Below are positions 5,975 through 34,415 of a stretch of 64,000 bases of DNA, in pieces. The notes beneath the pieces were generated by a model that saw nothing but the letters and a program-made list of their open reading frames with translations, did not search any database and was not told the DNA's origin. Where the stretch lies: positions 11,792 through 75,791 of the IMG/VR virus record IMGVR_UViG_3300031552_000002. One strand, 5' to 3'. This DNA comes from a virus. A program made the position numbers and the translations under genes. Each line of letters begins with the position of its first letter. Position 1 is the stretch's first letter.

Positions 5975-6906
5975 TCAGGGAGAGCAGAGCTCGGGATCGG
6001 CGGCTCTCCGACGCTGCCTGAGGGCCGCCTTGACGTAGTCCGGCACCGGCACGCCCTTGCCGGCGCACTCCGGGCAGCAGATGACACGGTGGGTCGGGTG
6101 GTCAGGGCACATCGCCTGAGGACCGGGAGCCGGGTGGGCCGCTGTGTGCCGATCTGACGGCCTCAAATCGCGAAGCCATGCCACCACAGCACCACCGTGG
6201 CACGAACCCCAGGACCGGGAACCTACGGCGGCGGAAATGGTCCCTGGGGTCCACCCGTCGGCTATCAGCCGCTCACACTCCCGGATGATGACTCCCCGGT
6301 TCAGGGACCGGCCCACGTCACCGACACCCTCGACAACCGCCTCAGCGAGGAGGGCAGTGGTTCCCCTGTGCCCGGCCTCAGTCGGGTTCTGGGTTGCGGG
6401 GTTTCCCGTTGATCCTTCCACCACCACCGTTGCCTCGTCTTGGGGTGCGGTGGGGCCGGTGGGCTGGGGGGCTTGGGGGGTGGATGGTTCTACGGATGGT
6501 TCTAAGGATGGTTCGGGGGATGCTGGCATCCTCCCCCCCCCGGATGCTGGCATCCTCCCCCCCCGGATGCTGGCATCCCCCCCTGTTCAGGTGTCCGATG
6601 CTGCGACGTCCCATCGCAGCCGGCCGGACACCGGACGAGGATTTCATACCGGTTCGGACGCTCATGCTCAGCGGTCCGGCGAGTCCCGCCATCGCCCAGG
6701 TGAGTCCGGATCTCGCCGGCAGTCTCCAGGCGGCGCAGGGCCGCGCGGACGTTCCGGGGATCGACGTTCGCGTACTTGGCCAGCGTCGCGATGGTCGGCC
6801 AGGACCCGCCGTCGCCGTCGTGGTTGGCGATCCCGAGGAGGACGACCTTGTCGGTGCCTCTGGACCGTGAGTGGTGCAGGACGATCGCCAGTGCCTCGAC
6901 GCTCAT
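5975..6906 (-). CDS. HTH-type replication initiator Rep1, frameshifted in an iteron G-tract
   Basis: KVVLLGIANHD...SWPTIATLAKYAN...VRAALRRLETAGEI; ORFs 6502..6906 and 5975..6553 join if the C8 at 6557-6564 were C9. Confidence 0.7.
6518..6578. repeat. Iteron-like palindromic repeats (candidate origin 1)
   Basis: GGATGCTGGCATCC x3 spaced by C-tracts; adjacent 12-bp GGATGGTTCTA repeats. Confidence 0.7.
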
Positions 6907-6992
6907 GCCGGGCCTCTCCGCCCGGTCTCAGCATCCGACCGGACCGGGAGTGTGCCTCGACCGATCCGGGATGCGCGGGTACTATGGTTCAT
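6903..6992 (-). CDS. Putative 29-aa leader peptide translationally coupled to Rep1
   Basis: GGAGCTGACATG start; MNHSTRASR...RRGPA* with its stop overlapping the Rep1 ATG (ATGA). Confidence 0.5.
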   Translation of the reverse strand: MNHSTRASRIGRGTLPVRSDAETGRRGPA

Positions 6993-7055
6993 GTCAGCTC
7001 CGATCTGACCATGGCCCGGATCCCCTACCAGGGATGCCGGGCCTCCACTTTTTGT
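6980..7055 (+). ncRNA. Putative antisense (counter-transcribed) RNA over the Rep1 leader RBS
   Basis: -10 TACTAT, 5 nt, ATGTCAGCTCC, two hairpins, T-run; homolog at 33521..33600. Confidence 0.55.
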
Positions 7056-7257
7056 CTTGTGCTGTAACCATACTCTGTGGTCTCGTTCGCTGGCCGCAAG
7101 GAACGGCATCGAATATCTACAGCTCAGGTCGGGGTCACCTATCACCCCAGGTCCTCGATCTTCACCTGCCCCGACCCGTTGGACAAGGACAAGATCCTCC
7201 GTGCGATCGCTGGCATCGATCCTGCGGCGGTGATCACCGCCTGACACCAGCAACGCA

Positions 7258-7303
7258 CGCAGGGAGCCCCCGATCTCGCTATGAGATCAGGGGCTCCCTA
7301 CGT
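7258..7303. terminator. Long hairpin terminator
   Basis: agggagccccc gatctc...gagatc aggggctccct. Confidence 0.65.
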
Positions 7304-10705: not shown

Positions 10706-12808
10706 ATGGGCAGGATGAGGACTCCGGGGCCGCTGCGTCCCGCCGTGGGGGTCGTGCGGCTGGTGCGGCGCCGGAAGCGCCGTGCCACTCAGAAGGCTGC
10801 CGAGCAGCGGAACGCCGACCGGCAGCAGGCCAGGGACCTTGCGGTTCTCGCTGCCCTCGCGCAACAGTCCGGGGCCAGCATCGACCTGGGGGCCCTCTCG
10901 GGGAAGATCCCTACCGGTAAGCCTGCCTGGCATCGTGCCTACCTGCAGGCTGGTGGGCACCGGGCCATCGGGTCCGTGTGGGCAGTCGCTCTGGGGCTCG
11001 ACGTGACCTGGCTGGGCGTCCACTACCTGCCCGGGGGGTGGATGGTGGGGGTCGGGAAAGCCCTCGTTGCCCTGGCGTGGATGGTAGGGGCTGTCCTGTG
11101 GCTGGGAAGTCTCGGCGGAGGGGCGAACCGCCGCATCGCGTCGTCCGGGGTTGTCCTGTTGTCGGCCGTCTGGGTGGGTCTCCCAGCCGGGCCGGTGGAG
11201 CTCCCCGCCCGATGGATGACGCTGGTCCTGGTCGCGGTCGTGGCGTCCGTGGCGAGGGGCTGGCATTTCCGGGCCCGCCCGGTCACGGAAGAGACCAGGG
11301 CAGCGCGGAAGCCGCGCCAGACAGACCAGGCCCGGACCTGGGATGAGTACCTGGGGGCCGAGAAGAAAGCAATCGCCGGGACCCGCCTGGAGGGTGTCGA
11401 GGTCAAGGACACGTCGTGGTCGGCGACGGTTGTGTGCCCGAGGGACTCTCAGGGCGCGCAGCTCGTCGTTAGTGCCCGGGAGCGCATCGCCACGGCTTTC
11501 GGGGTGTCGCCGCTGTGGGTCGAGGTCATCCGGACCTCGGACAACTCGCGGCCTCGGGTCGTCGTGACGACAGAGGCGACCCTCGCGGAGTCCCGGCCGT
11601 GGACTCCTGCCGGGGTGACGGCGACGACGGTCGAGGTCGGGACCCGCCCGGACGGCACCCGGGTGGTCGCTGAAGTGCAGCGCCCGGAATCCGGGGTCCG
11701 CCACTGGTGGTTCACCGGCGGGTCCGGGTCGGGGAAGACAGCGGCGGTGATCGGGACGGTGGGGCGGATCATGCAGCCGCACGTGCCGGCACTGGAGGCC
11801 ACAGGTGAGAAGGTCGGGTGGGTCGTCCTTGACCTCGTGGACCTGGGTGAGACCTCGCTCCCCGCCCTCGCGGATGACCGGGTGAGGTTCCGGTTCGGGA
11901 CGACGGTCGAGGACTGCCGGCTCGCGCTCCAGCGGGCTGTCGCGGTGATGGAGTCCCGGCAGCACGCTATGCGGTCTATGCGGATCGTGGACCGGGGGGT
12001 GGAGCGTGTCGGTGTCTCGACGCTCCAGGTGGGCCCCGAGTACCCCCTGTACCTCCTCCTGATCGAGGAGGCTACGGGGATCATCGGGGACAAACAGTCG
12101 ATGCTGCTTGCGCAGCAGGTCGCGAAGTTAGGCAGAAAGTACGGCGTGTCCCTGGCCTGGGTTACCCAGACCAGCAGCCTCAACGAGGCTTTCGGGCCGA
12201 ACGGCGGCGAGGCCGTCCGCATGAATATTCAGGCCAACGGGTCGGTGTGGGCCGGATGGTCGAACCGCGGGTCCGGGCAGATGGCTTTCGGTGGCGGTGT
12301 TCAGATCAATCTCGCCGAGATCCCGAAGGGCCAGCCGGGAACGGGCCTGTGGGTCACTCAGGGCGGGGACCGGTGCGGGGTGTCCCGAACGGACTGGATC
12401 GATGATTCACAGGGCCGCCCCGACAGCGTGCCGTCGATGTGGCAGGTCGCGGACACGATCGTTCCCGGGGGCCTCGAAGCGGCGGCGTTGGTGGCCGTCG
12501 AGGAGGTCGAGGCCGCCGCTGTTCAGGGGAGCGGGGAAGGCGGGGAGGTCCCGGCGGTCCGGCTGGTGGAGGCGTCGTCCTCGGTGGGTGACCGGCGAGC
12601 GCTGGTCGCAGGGATCGTCGAGGATCTGGCCGCGGAAGGCCCGGTTAGGACATCCGAGGTGATGGTCGAGTTCTTGGCCCGTACTGGGGACGCCGGGCTG
12701 CAACCAACGGACCCCGAATGGGGAAAGATTTACGACCGTGTTCTGAAGGATCTCGGGCAAGTCGCCGCGAAAACCTCTCGCGGCCAGTGGGAAAGGAAAG
12801 CAGCATGA
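10706..12808 (+). CDS. traB: TraB-like FtsK/SpoIIIE DNA translocase
   Basis: N-terminal TM helices, Walker A GGSGSGKT, Walker B LLLIEE, LGRKYGV...TQ, C-terminal wHTH-like region. Confidence 0.75.
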   Translation: MGRMRTPGPLRPAVGVVRLVRRRKRRATQKAAEQRNADRQQARDLAVLAALAQQSGASIDLGALSGKIPTGKPAWHRAYLQAGGHRAIGSVWAVALGLDVTWLGVHYLPGGWMVGVGKALVALAWMVGAVLWLGSLGGGANRRIASSGVVLLSAVWVGLPAGPVELPARWMTLVLVAVVASVARGWHFRARPVTEETRAARKPRQTDQARTWDEYLGAEKKAIAGTRLEGVEVKDTSWSATVVCPRDSQGAQLVVSARERIATAFGVSPLWVEVIRTSDNSRPRVVVTTEATLAESRPWTPAGVTATTVEVGTRPDGTRVVAEVQRPESGVRHWWFTGGSGSGKTAAVIGTVGRIMQPHVPALEATGEKVGWVVLDLVDLGETSLPALADDRVRFRFGTTVEDCRLALQRAVAVMESRQHAMRSMRIVDRGVERVGVSTLQVGPEYPLYLLLIEEATGIIGDKQSMLLAQQVAKLGRKYGVSLAWVTQTSSLNEAFGPNGGEAVRMNIQANGSVWAGWSNRGSGQMAFGGGVQINLAEIPKGQPGTGLWVTQGGDRCGVSRTDWIDDSQGRPDSVPSMWQVADTIVPGGLEAAALVAVEEVEAAAVQGSGEGGEVPAVRLVEASSSVGDRRALVAGIVEDLAAEGPVRTSEVMVEFLARTGDAGLQPTDPEWGKIYDRVLKDLGQVAAKTSRGQWERKAA

Positions 12809-32633: not shown

Positions 32634-33533
32634 TCACGCTGCTACCGTTGCCGCGCATTGGCCTCGGAGAAGGTCTCGGATCCTCGCAGCCCCAGCGCTG
32701 GGAGCAGGGGCCTGCTCCGGTATCACCTGCTGCGCTACGGGAATAGTGCCCGCGTACCGGGGGTGGCAGTGGCAGCGTCTCATGCGGCCGTATCCGTCCT
32801 CGACGAAACCGTGGTCACAGGACCCGCACCACTCCCGGCGGGGAACAGGAAGACGGCACGGGGTGACCTCGCCGAGCCGGTGGAGGAGGACAGCCCGGGG
32901 GCTCCGGGCCCCGTCGAGGGCCCCGCTAAGGGTCTCCTCGGCGGCCCGAAAACCACGCAGGGCGTTCCCGGCGCCGAGGCCACGAAGGATCGGCAGGAGC
33001 TCGTCCTCCTGGACTGGCAGGGACATCCTGGCGAGTCGGCGTCGGACGTCCAGCTCGTCAGGGTCTTCCTCCTGGCGTTCAGTGGGCGCGGGCCCGGCGT
33101 GAGGCCAGACGACAGCGGGAGGCCCCGGGCGCAGAACCTCGACCGGGCGCCGGACTGCTGTGGGTTCCTCTACGAGCGCGGGGTTCTCGTGGGGCTCCTG
33201 GGATGCGTCCTCGACGTGTTCGGCTGTCTCCGTGGCTCCTGCGGACGGCGCGTAGGTCGTCAGCGTGTACGTGCACCCGACGATCCCGCCGTTCCGGTGC
33301 CGCTGCACCGACGTGACCAGCCCCGAGGCCCTGAGGGCAACCAGGGCCGCCTTGACGGGGCGGAGCGTGAGGCCAGCGCGTTCGGCAATCGCGTGCTGTG
33401 AGGGCCAGCAGGTGCCGTTGCTGTCGGCGAAGGACTCAAGCGCCAGGTACACGCGAACCTCAGCGCCGGTCTTGGTGAGTTCGAGGGCCCGTGCCGCTCT
33501 GAGGCGCGGTCCCGGGCAGGTACACTGTTCCAT
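32634..33533 (-). CDS. HTH-type replication initiator Rep2
   Basis: VYLALESFAD..GTCWPSQHAIAERAGL...ALVALRASGLV; C-terminal WCGSC...RCHCHP. Confidence 0.7.
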   Translation of the reverse strand: MEQCTCPGPRLRAARALELTKTGAEVRVYLALESFADSNGTCWPSQHAIAERAGLTLRPVKAALVALRASGLVTSVQRHRNGGIVGCTYTLTTYAPSAGATETAEHVEDASQEPHENPALVEEPTAVRRPVEVLRPGPPAVVWPHAGPAPTERQEEDPDELDVRRRLARMSLPVQEDELLPILRGLGAGNALRGFRAAEETLSGALDGARSPRAVLLHRLGEVTPCRLPVPRREWCGSCDHGFVEDGYGRMRRCHCHPRYAGTIPVAQQVIPEQAPAPSAGAARIRDLLRGQCAATVAA

Positions 33534-33600
33534 GTCAGCTCCTATCAAGCTGGCCACGGCCCGGACCCCCTCCGCAGGGGTGCCGGGCCTTCTTCTGTCG
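33521..33600 (+). ncRNA. Putative antisense RNA over the Rep2 RBS
   Basis: -10 TACACT, 5 nt, ATGTCAGCTCC, hairpins homologous to 6980..7055. Confidence 0.55.
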
Positions 33601-33689
33601 TTGTGGTCCTGAAGCTATCACCTGCCGCCGCTGTTCCCGTGGAGCACCTCGCCGAGGCCGAGGCTGGGGGGTAGGGGGGTTCTTTCCTT

Positions 33690-33784
33690 GAAAACCTTCT
33701 TTGGAAACCTTCTGTAGGCTCCACAGAGCACTAGGTAGTGCTCCGTGGAGCACTAGGTGGTGCTGGTGGGAGCACCAGGTAGGA
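33690..33784. repeat. Iteron-like 22-bp-period repeats (candidate origin 2)
   Basis: GAGCACTAGGT at 33726 and 33748, variant at 33770; adjacent GAAACCTTCT-like repeats. Confidence 0.6.
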
Positions 33785-34415
33785 CGAGGCCGTCCAAGAC
33801 CTCTGACGGGTAGGTGGATGACACCGTGCTGGTGCCGTCCCCCCGGGTCACCTGGTAAGAGCCGTGCACAGTCGATGACACCGACCCTGCTGCTTCCATC
33901 GCGGCCCTGACCATCAGTTCCGGTGACAGCTCTAGCCTGCTGGCCACGGCTAGGGCACCGGAGGCGATGGCCTCAGCGCTGCCGATCGCCACGTAGCCGC
34001 AGAACGGGACGAGTACCCCGTAGTTGCTCTCGATCAGCGCGCACGAGTCATCGTGCGCGATGACGAGTTGCTCATCGCAGGACGGGAACCCCGGGCCCTG
34101 ATGGGTGAGCCCAGCCTCAGCGAATGTTCGCCGGAGGAACGGGACAACGGCTCGCACGACCCAGGTGCAGAATCTCTCGTGGGGGAACCGTTCGGGGAGC
34201 TTACTTCCCGTCCGGACGCTGGACAGGATGAGCTGCGGGGTGAGCGCGATCCCGGCTGTACCCAGGTAGGCGTGAAGGTACGACCCGGTAACGGGAACGG
34301 CAACGATCTTCGGGTTGTCGTACTCGTCGCTGAGTACTGGGTCTGAATACCGGTAGTCCGCTGCGATCGCGGCACTACCACGGCCAGGCCCGGCGGCAGC
34401 GATGACCAGAGTCAT
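33753..34415 (-). CDS. Ntn-hydrolase (HslV/proteasome-beta-like) peptidase
   Basis: M-T-LVIAA...AAD, PKI, AIGS. Confidence 0.7.
   Translation of the reverse strand: MTLVIAAAGPGRGSAAIAADYRYSDPVLSDEYDNPKIVAVPVTGSYLHAYLGTAGIALTPQLILSSVRTGSKLPERFPHERFCTWVVRAVVPFLRRTFAEAGLTHQGPGFPSCDEQLVIAHDDSCALIESNYGVLVPFCGYVAIGSAEAIASGALAVASRLELSPELMVRAAMEAAGSVSSTVHGSYQVTRGDGTSTVSSTYPSEVLDGLVLPGAPTSTT

Follow-up and report, generated by a model that had tools for sequence, protein, structure and literature searches.

The locus considered here raises the question of what is controlled by a compact element at positions 6980-7072 of a 64,000-nucleotide (nt) stretch of viral DNA (positions 11,792 to 75,791 of the IMG/VR record IMGVR_UViG_3300031552_000002; the whole of this stretch is referred to as the window). 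On its plus strand the element shows a predicted promoter, two hairpins and a T-run, and on the minus strand the same bases hold the ribosome-binding site and start codon of a 29-codon open reading frame (ORF) directly ahead of rep1, a gene annotated as a replication initiator. The initial annotation read this arrangement as the copy-number switch of a phage-plasmid, after the model of CopA/tap/repA of plasmid R1. The element is far beyond chance, since it has a second copy in the same phage and shows covariation in its relatives. Comparison of these relatives indicates that it is probably one copy of a portable gene-head cassette of ~90-100 base pairs (bp) in phages of high-GC Actinobacteria, which would give rise to an antisense RNA that covers the ribosome-binding site and start codon of the gene behind it and represses that gene.

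Anatomy and distribution of the cassette

In copy 1, the predicted -10 box of the antisense RNA, TACTAT (6980-6985, plus strand), lies within codons 3-5 of the minus-strand ORF and is followed by GGTTC. The sequence ATGTCAGCTCC is read directly at 6991-7001 of the plus strand, and here, at A6991 or G6993, the predicted RNA would begin; it would end in a T-rich tail, giving a transcript of ~65-70 nt (6991-7058). Hairpin 1 (6993-7009) pairs GTCAG (6993-6997) with CTGAC (7005-7009) and carries an anti-Shine-Dalgarno sequence in its loop, CUCCGAU. Hairpin 2 (7013-7043) has 12 bp, formed by GGCCCGGATCCC and, across the loop CTACCA, by GGGAT, a bulged G and CCGGGCC, with an A-T pair beside the bulge; it is predicted to be the terminator stem of the antisense RNA and is followed by the tail TCCACTTTTTGTCTT (7044-7058), which includes TTTTT at 7049-7053. 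Folding of the plus-strand RNA gives these two hairpins (-30.9 kcal/mol, z = -3.1), and the RNA scores 103.8 bits with our covariance model R1 and 67.6 bits with model R2. On the minus strand, GGAG-CTGAC-ATG (6990-7001; GGAG at 7001-6998, ATG at 6992-6990) provides a ribosome-binding site and start codon under the predicted antisense RNA, and a candidate sense -10 box, TATGGT (7067-7072, minus strand), opposes the antisense promoter. Direct reading of the DNA returned in place every feature that the initial annotation had listed, i.e., TACTAT, the hairpins, the T-run, GGAG-CTGAC-ATG, the ORF of 29 amino acids and the overlap of its stop with the ATG of rep1.

Self-comparison of the window revealed the second copy, 79% identical, at 33516-33590; the element as a whole is placed at 33519-33607. 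It has TACACT as predicted -10 box (33521-33526, plus strand) and a predicted antisense RNA at 33532-33605 (plus strand) with hairpin 1 at 33534-33554, hairpin 2 at 33558-33589 and the tail TTCTTCTGTCGTTGTG; this RNA scores 76.1 bits with model R2. Both copies share the same spacing, CATGTCAGCTCC and the bulged G in hairpin 2. Hairpin 1 of copy 2 is re-paired, and its hairpin 2 differs from that of copy 1 by a compensatory change of U-A to C-G; relative to copy 1 there is also a U·G pair that forms on the antisense strand only. The gene behind copy 2, rep2 (32634-33533, minus strand; 299 amino acids), begins with the same 12-mer as found at copy 1, GGAG-CTGAC-ATG, and has a candidate sense -10 box, TAGCTT, at 33612-33617 (minus strand). 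Here, the ATG under the predicted antisense RNA is the start of rep2 itself and there is no upstream ORF.

Comparison of the two window copies with isolated phages and plasmids by blastn gave nothing useful, and two over-specific DNA patterns returned few or no relatives. A scan of IMG/VR with a pattern that leaves free the -10 box, the 3' arm of hairpin 2, the bulge and the tail (CATGTCRRCTCC N5-9 YYGRCC N2-5 CCCGG) matched at least 119 stretches, of which 98, 90 of them distinct, were aligned with a covariance model. With a consensus-like member as query, blastn located the cassette in 63 isolated phages (57 of Gordonia, 4 of Microbacterium, and 2 of Rhodococcus); cultured SEA-PHAGES Gordonia phages carry it, for example Guacamole at gene 77, BENtherdunthat at its HNH gene and Faith5x5 at gene 29, and it is found in 7 of 72,556 plasmid records. 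There are exactly two copies in the record of the window's phage (G000), two in G003 and one in G001. The initial annotation had named Rfam and actinophage genomes as the places to look for such a family. IMG/VR and the isolated actinophages indeed supplied it, but Rfam did not: Rfam 15 gave no match at gathering score for the whole window, and a permissive threshold gave chance-level matches only (e.g., sX13 with 17.7 bits vs. a gathering score of 50). Literature searches, including searches on Gordonia phages, did not retrieve a description of the cassette. Apparently, therefore, a cassette of ~90 bases, present well over a hundred times among phages of high-GC bacteria, has gone undescribed.

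The genes headed by the cassette are mutually unrelated; they encode HNH and GIY-YIG nucleases, small Cys proteins, hypothetical proteins and, in the window, two predicted initiators. The first relatives, obtained with narrow patterns, stood before a MUG113/GIY-YIG-like gene (locus L004) and two HNH genes in one provirus (L201). In isolated phages, the gene starts at which the cassette stands are annotated ones, of HNH, GIY-YIG and hypothetical genes. Since the downstream proteins are unrelated, it is the cassette that is conserved and not a protein N-terminus. The sole trait common to the downstream genes is that their products bind or cut DNA, or else are small and of unknown role, and, therefore, restraint of costly or selfish genes fits them better than replicon copy control. 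To judge from this distribution, the cassette appears to be a general gene-start control, often placed on selfish nuclease genes.

Evidence for an RNA from the strand opposite the gene

The pattern TAnnnT occurs at one fixed position in 102 of the 109 copies compared. The T, A and T at -10, -9 and -5 before CATG are present in 103, 104 and 104 of these copies, respectively, whereas the inner three bases and the flanks vary. TANNNT is the actinobacterial -10 consensus, and a start 6-8 nt past the box would fall on the complement of the start codon. Within the gene, the bases of the box correspond to position 2 of codon 3, position 3 of codon 4 and position 1 of codon 5. Residue 4 is variable, with 12 amino acids represented, and still the last base of its codon is T in 80 of the 82 ORFs, while T makes up 9.3% of the third positions in codons 8-60 of the same ORFs. 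This excess of T despite the variety of amino acids indicates selection on nucleotides. Computationally, a fixed TAnnnT at synonymous sites argues for an opposite-strand promoter of the type known from IS10 RNA-OUT and P22 sar.

The two hairpins are maintained throughout the family. In the five relatives found first, 98.8% of the alignment cells are paired, and in the 90 distinct relatives this is 98.5%, compared to 28-55% in slid controls. Compensatory cells number 216 vs. 52.7 in shuffled alignments, and none of 500 shuffles reached as high a value. Hairpin 1 is paired in 99.8% of its cells, with compensatory changes in two of its five pairs; in hairpin 2 such changes affect seven of the 12 pairs. 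In the 3' arm of hairpin 2, 88 of 90 members retain the bulged G (alignment A6, column 94) although the stems surrounding it covary freely, which suggests that it is a recognition feature for a protein or RNase beyond plain termination. A YUNR U-turn was rejected as a family trait, as only 31 of the 90 copies have one in the hairpin 2 loop.

The strand on which these pairs are maintained bears directly on an alternative, according to which the cassette acts in the sense mRNA only, where it could serve translation as an operator, bind a protein or stabilise the 5' end, with no role for an antisense transcript. Its hairpins are situated at the extreme 5' end of the predicted mRNA with GGAG in a loop beside the AUG, as such an explanation would have it, and it has known parallels in the SAS/ESAS repeats of other actinophages (PMC3203893; PMC7302621) and in the RBS-sequestering hairpins of T4-like phages (PMC2677866). 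The latter are conserved, stand directly before the start codons of free-standing, selfish homing-endonuclease genes and have been described as translational regulators, thought to limit translation; however, they are sense-strand hairpins with an embedded late promoter (PMC2677866), whereas the cassette has an opposite-strand fold, its own -10 box and a terminator-like tail. Moreover, when all pairs are read on either strand, both readings contain 1312 Watson-Crick pairs, but the antisense reading has 167 G·U pairs and 22 mismatches and the sense reading 11 G·U pairs and 178 mismatches, so that pairs kept on the antisense strand are broken on the sense strand. The difference persists if the conserved U·G of hairpin 1 is left out (79 G·U pairs and 22 mismatches for antisense vs. 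11 and 90 for sense), and the G·U pairs are spread across five or more pair positions. Alignment-free folding also finds the antisense strand to be the more stable one in 93 of the 109 copies (mean -32.1 vs. -28.9 kcal/mol). A T-rich tract follows hairpin 2 in the antisense direction only: T makes up 56, 43, 66, 58, and 54% of the first five positions past the stem, compared to a background of ~20%, and there is almost no A. Furthermore, a leader element has no need of a TAnnnT at synonymous sites inside the ORF. Action in the sense mRNA only is, therefore, considered unlikely.

Covariation, G·U asymmetry and the T-rich tail together point, on computational grounds, to a structured antisense-strand RNA with a terminator. 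The initial annotation had placed an antisense RNA gene over the ribosome-binding site and start codon, and comparison of the relatives supports this through the conserved -10 box, the strand-specific fold and the T-rich tail; most likely, the cassette makes a small antisense RNA over these two sites. In 60 of 90 copies the sense strand has a TAnnnT as well, often TAGAAT, 8-35 nt past hairpin 2, vs. 23 of 90 for a control pattern. Two facing promoters ~100 bp apart are, consequently, predicted, of which the sense leader and the antisense RNA would overlap fully.

The TAnnnT could also chiefly promote a divergent neighbour, in which case the hairpins would be the leader or attenuator of that neighbour and the overlap with the gene start a side effect. 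This is rather improbable, as in at least 33 of the 82 contexts examined the upstream gene is co-directional and a divergent one is lacking (e.g., gp76-gp77 of Guacamole, and L004), and the conserved strong stem with its T-rich tail is terminator-like. Neighbour strands were assigned here by a crude call based on the GC content of third codon positions (GC3), which left 32 of the 82 contexts undecided. By the same call, a divergent ORF lies just past the tail in 17 of the 82 copies, and in the Gordonia phage Faith5x5 gene 28, encoded on the other strand, begins 37 nt past the cassette; the “antisense” promoter may, therefore, also feed a gene in some contexts. In the window itself, a plus-strand ORF of 55 codons (7077-7244; GC3 0.75) starts ~20 nt past the tail of the predicted antisense RNA. 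It is without a Shine-Dalgarno sequence, without a match in Pfam or PHROG and without relatives; should it be a real gene, read-through from the antisense promoter could serve it too.

A further explanation would be that the conserved block acts as DNA and forms the boundary, for recombination or homing, at which a mobile endonuclease cassette ends, the RNA features being incidental. The cassette is common to unrelated genes, many of them HNH or GIY-YIG, its first five codons appear to be grafted onto Rep2, where MEQCTC stands ahead of the part conserved in the protein P0003, and at one locus (L227) it is retained in front of a remnant ORF of 19 codons. A site acting as DNA, however, predicts no strand-specific G·U pairs, no one-sided T tail and no TAnnnT with free inner bases, and we regard this explanation as highly improbable. 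Mobility and an RNA function of the cassette are compatible and can both be true.

Several observations weigh against a repressing antisense RNA and have to be set beside this evidence, in addition to the divergent ORFs mentioned above. No -35 box or extended -10 is conserved across the 109 copies, leaving a bare -10 box as promoter. A/T-rich early codons are also favoured for translation initiation and could add to the -10 signal, although such a preference is insufficient since three positions are fixed with free bases between them. At copy 1, a simple consensus scanner recognised no promoter or terminator, as the T-run begins only 5 nt past the stem. At L004, the T tail is weak, and just 16 nt separate the copy from the stop of its upstream gene. 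The 98-row alignment was made with a model built in the antisense orientation, a bias that is offset by the agreement of the alignment-free folding test, and its members share descent so that the counts overstate the number of independent events. At rep1, the gene has its own GGAGAG 7 nt before its ATG, and coupling to the 29-codon ORF may, therefore, be partial; in this assembly rep1 is, moreover, split by a frameshift, associated with an 8-G vs. a 9-G run in a tandem repeat.

Proposed mode of action and the question of copy control

If the cassette does act through an antisense RNA, the sense promoter, where present, would start an mRNA with a leader of ~75 nt, in which the complements of the two hairpins, that of hairpin 2 first, precede the AUG; the loop formed by the hairpin 1 complement would contain GGAG. 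The opposing promoter, the bare TAnnnT in codons 3-5, would start an RNA of ~65-75 nt at the complement of the start codon, consisting of hairpin 1 with the anti-Shine-Dalgarno CUCC in its loop, hairpin 2 and a U-rich tail. This RNA would be wholly complementary to the AUG, the ribosome-binding site and the rest of the mRNA leader as far as its 5' end, and its CUCC loop would face the GGAG in the loop of the mRNA hairpin. Pairing of the two would block the 30S subunit and possibly trigger cleavage of the duplex, and head-on transcription may add promoter interference. The net effect would be that the protein behind the cassette is held down. At copy 2 the repressed protein would be the O-like initiator Rep2 itself. 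At copy 1, ribosomes on the 29-codon ORF would traverse the stem-loop that holds the ribosome-binding site of rep1 and stop at AUGA; repression would, therefore, reach rep1 by termination-reinitiation.

How far copy 1 bears out this coupling depends on the 29-codon ORF (MNHSTRASRIGRGTLPVRSDAETGRRGPA with its stop; 6903-6992, minus strand), of which the TGA (6905-6903) overlaps the ATG of rep1 (6906-6904) as ATGA. Its GC contents by codon position are 0.63, 0.73, and 0.63, and it is, therefore, without a coding signature; no homologues were found, and Pfam gave a match at chance level only. A conserved peptide was consequently ruled out. The ATGA overlap was likewise rejected as a designed feature: nearly all of ~80 Rep1 homologues start with (A/G/T)TGAGC, so the overlap follows from the conserved Met-Ser start of the family and is generic, and short first ORFs often overlap the next gene by 4 nt. 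As to the sense strand, its predicted fold places the GGAGAG of rep1 in the loop of a stem-loop and the AUG of rep1 in a stem-loop that the upstream ORF traverses. The coupled leader ORF put forward in the initial annotation thus has a plausible layout at copy 1 and an analogue of 22 codons in the closest relative of Rep1 (see below), but it is absent at copy 2, and it lacks both a coding signature and relatives.

Short first genes also occur elsewhere in the family. At L274, L252, and L226 the cassette heads a Cys-rich protein of 65 amino acids (CxWH...ACxPC), the stop of which overlaps the start of a conserved gene of 76 amino acids (MTWKPKPP...). At L227 (1603-1659) this first gene has shrunk to 19 codons with the ATGA overlap retained, a naturally occurring counterpart of the window's 29-codon ORF.

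The N-terminal ORF of rep1 (6502-6906, minus strand; 134 amino acids) matches HTH_36 (PF13730, E = 3e-9) and phrog_8540, “replication initiation O-like” (E = 1.4e-29), and Rep2 is likewise of the HTH_36 (PF13730)/O-like type, with a match to phrog_391 (E = 2.1e-10). On the basis of these annotations both are predicted initiators; “Rep1” is to be taken as a family name only, since it is based on matches to HTH_36 and PHROG profiles. The C-terminal part of rep1 (5975-6553, minus strand) is in a different frame, owing to tandem repeats of 24 nt in which a G-run (at ~6553-6561) differs by one base. There are three such units at 6515-6590 (minus strand), each composed of ATGCCAGCATCC, a G-run and AGG, of which the first has a run of 8 G and the second of 9 G. 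With 9 G the frame of rep1 would stay open (MPASGGGR, MPASGGGR, MPASPEPS...), as in the single protein of 335 amino acids encoded at L005. The split may be an assembly error, a true frameshift or the result of homopolymer slippage.

Protein-anchored scans for Rep1 in viral, genome and metagenome collections yielded ~195 loci, nearly all of which are from ~15-kb phages of the Arthrobacter or Microbacterium type without the cassette. In these small phages (L006-L084), an upstream MerR-like HTH gene overlaps the O-like start by 4 nt and ends on the same TGA, which means that one initiator family is wired in two ways. Related elements were found at L005, L046, and L066 only. L005, the closest relative (79% identical), has a matching layout with TACGAT, a 22-codon ORF that ends in ATGA, a 13-bp hairpin and GTTTTGTCGTG. 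The Rep1 homologues of L046 (1891-1981) and L066 (1892-1981; both on the minus strand of the loci) are 47-48% identical and have a diverged cassette with TAAACT and both hairpins, scoring 31 and 27 bits, respectively, with model R2. No ATG (as CATG) follows the GGAGG there, the ATG of the initiator is ~45 nt farther, and an upstream ORF of the 29-codon type is not conserved in either. For Rep2, a scan of the viral collection returned no relatives; P0002, which is 90% identical to Rep2, is likewise called from MEQCTCPG.

Against this background, an R1-like CopA/tap/repA switch controlling the copy number of a phage-plasmid is very unlikely. What had suggested it is present in the window: the predicted antisense RNA of copy 1 lies over the ribosome-binding site of a short ORF whose stop overlaps an initiator-like start, the second initiator-like gene has the same element, and a repeat array with a period of 22 bp lies upstream of rep2. 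The cassette, however, is not specific to initiators, as most copies head nucleases and other genes, and copy 2 has no upstream ORF. Rfam gave no CopA match over copy 2 at E-values up to 10, and the proteins are O-like/HTH_36 and not IncFII RepA. The 75.8-kb record represents a tailed phage with terminase, portal, DnaB, RecT, and YqaJ, and no integrase, ParA or ParB was found in it. Finally, the 7 plasmid records with the cassette, out of 72,556, are few for an element of plasmid copy control. This part of the initial annotation is, therefore, not supported.

Comparison with known systems and further features

Among known systems, the cassette would functionally be most like IS10 RNA-OUT/RNA-IN and P22 sar. 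In IS10/Tn10, promoters face each other and a short, stable stem-loop antisense RNA, RNA-OUT, covers the 5' end, ribosome-binding site and start codon of the mRNA, RNA-IN, and represses its translation. The likeness would lie in the facing promoters and in an antisense RNA over the ribosome-binding site on the mRNA of a selfish element's DNA-cutting enzyme. The differences are that the predicted RNA of the cassette has two hairpins and RNA-OUT one, that there is no relationship in sequence or in Rfam, that the overlap in the cassette spans the whole leader of ~75 nt with the antisense -10 box inside codons 3-5, and that the cassette has high-GC Actinobacteria as hosts and heads many unrelated genes. 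In phage P22, sar lies over the ribosome-binding site of ant, and in P1/P7 the target blocked by c4 is icd, with ant coupled to icd in translation. As proposed for the cassette, a small antisense RNA of a phage blocks a ribosome-binding site, in P1 with an effect that reaches the downstream gene via a coupled upstream ORF; but these are single loci of enterobacterial phages that control antirepressors, whereas the cassette is repeated across genes and phages. In plasmid R1, CopA pairs upstream of tap. The resemblance to CopA/CopT-tap-repA, and to hok/mok/sok, applies to copy 1 only, where the predicted antisense RNA lies over the ribosome-binding site of a short ORF of which the stop overlaps the start of the key gene. 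The unconserved state of that ORF and its absence at copy 2, the O-like/HTH_36 type of the initiator and the occurrence of the element outside replicons set the two apart.

In placement, the cassette resembles the SAS/ESAS start-associated repeats of actinophages, described for Cluster K mycobacteriophages (PMC3203893) and Microbacterium phages of Cluster EF (PMC7302621), which have inverted repeats upstream and a function that is unknown; their binding partner was left open by the authors as “RNA or protein” (PMC3203893). As in the cassette, a conserved sequence lies over the ribosome-binding site of unrelated actinophage genes with an inverted repeat just upstream. The sequences themselves are different: the SAS consensus of 13 bp is GGGATAGGAGCCC in Cluster K or GGGAAAGGACCCC in Cluster EF, compared to GGAGTCGACATG in the cassette, with its core GGAG-TCGAC/CTGAC-ATG. 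SAS also occurs in 10-19 copies per genome vs. one or two for the cassette, and no conserved codons, antisense promoter or strand test have been reported for it.

Taken as a whole, there is in our view about an even chance that these elements form an unnamed cassette family of actinobacteriophages, with facing promoters, a two-hairpin antisense RNA and a promoter within the first five codons, that moves between unrelated genes and keeps selfish or dangerous DNA-binding proteins, such as homing nucleases and replication initiators, at a low level. If the RNA is made, a widespread family of regulatory RNAs in actinobacteriophages is missing from Rfam. If the proposed function is correct, it would explain how free-standing nuclease and initiator genes are restrained in these phages, by a compact design in which the promoter occupies synonymous or near-synonymous sites in the first codons of the regulated gene, and it would offer a testable hypothesis for the SAS/ESAS repeats, the role of which has been open since 2011. 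For annotation, the cassette marks true start codons; Rep2 and many hypothetical genes have their ATG fixed by it. Some caution is also called for, as it would be the promoter, and not the protein, that constrains codons 1-5 of these genes.

Two further features of the window concern the surroundings of the two copies. Near copy 1, a hairpin at 7257-7303 with 21-nt arms that are 90% complementary follows directly after a xis-like HTH_17 gene (7616-7308, minus strand). It is probably the terminator of this gene, and the rep1 cassette downstream would, therefore, be a separate transcription unit. Near copy 2, three to four direct repeats with a period of 22 bp (GCTCCnnnGAGCACTAGGTrGT) and internal dyad symmetry are present at 33718-33793, ~185-260 bp upstream of the start of rep2. 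These repeats resemble iterons or operators and are the best candidate for an origin or initiator-binding array.

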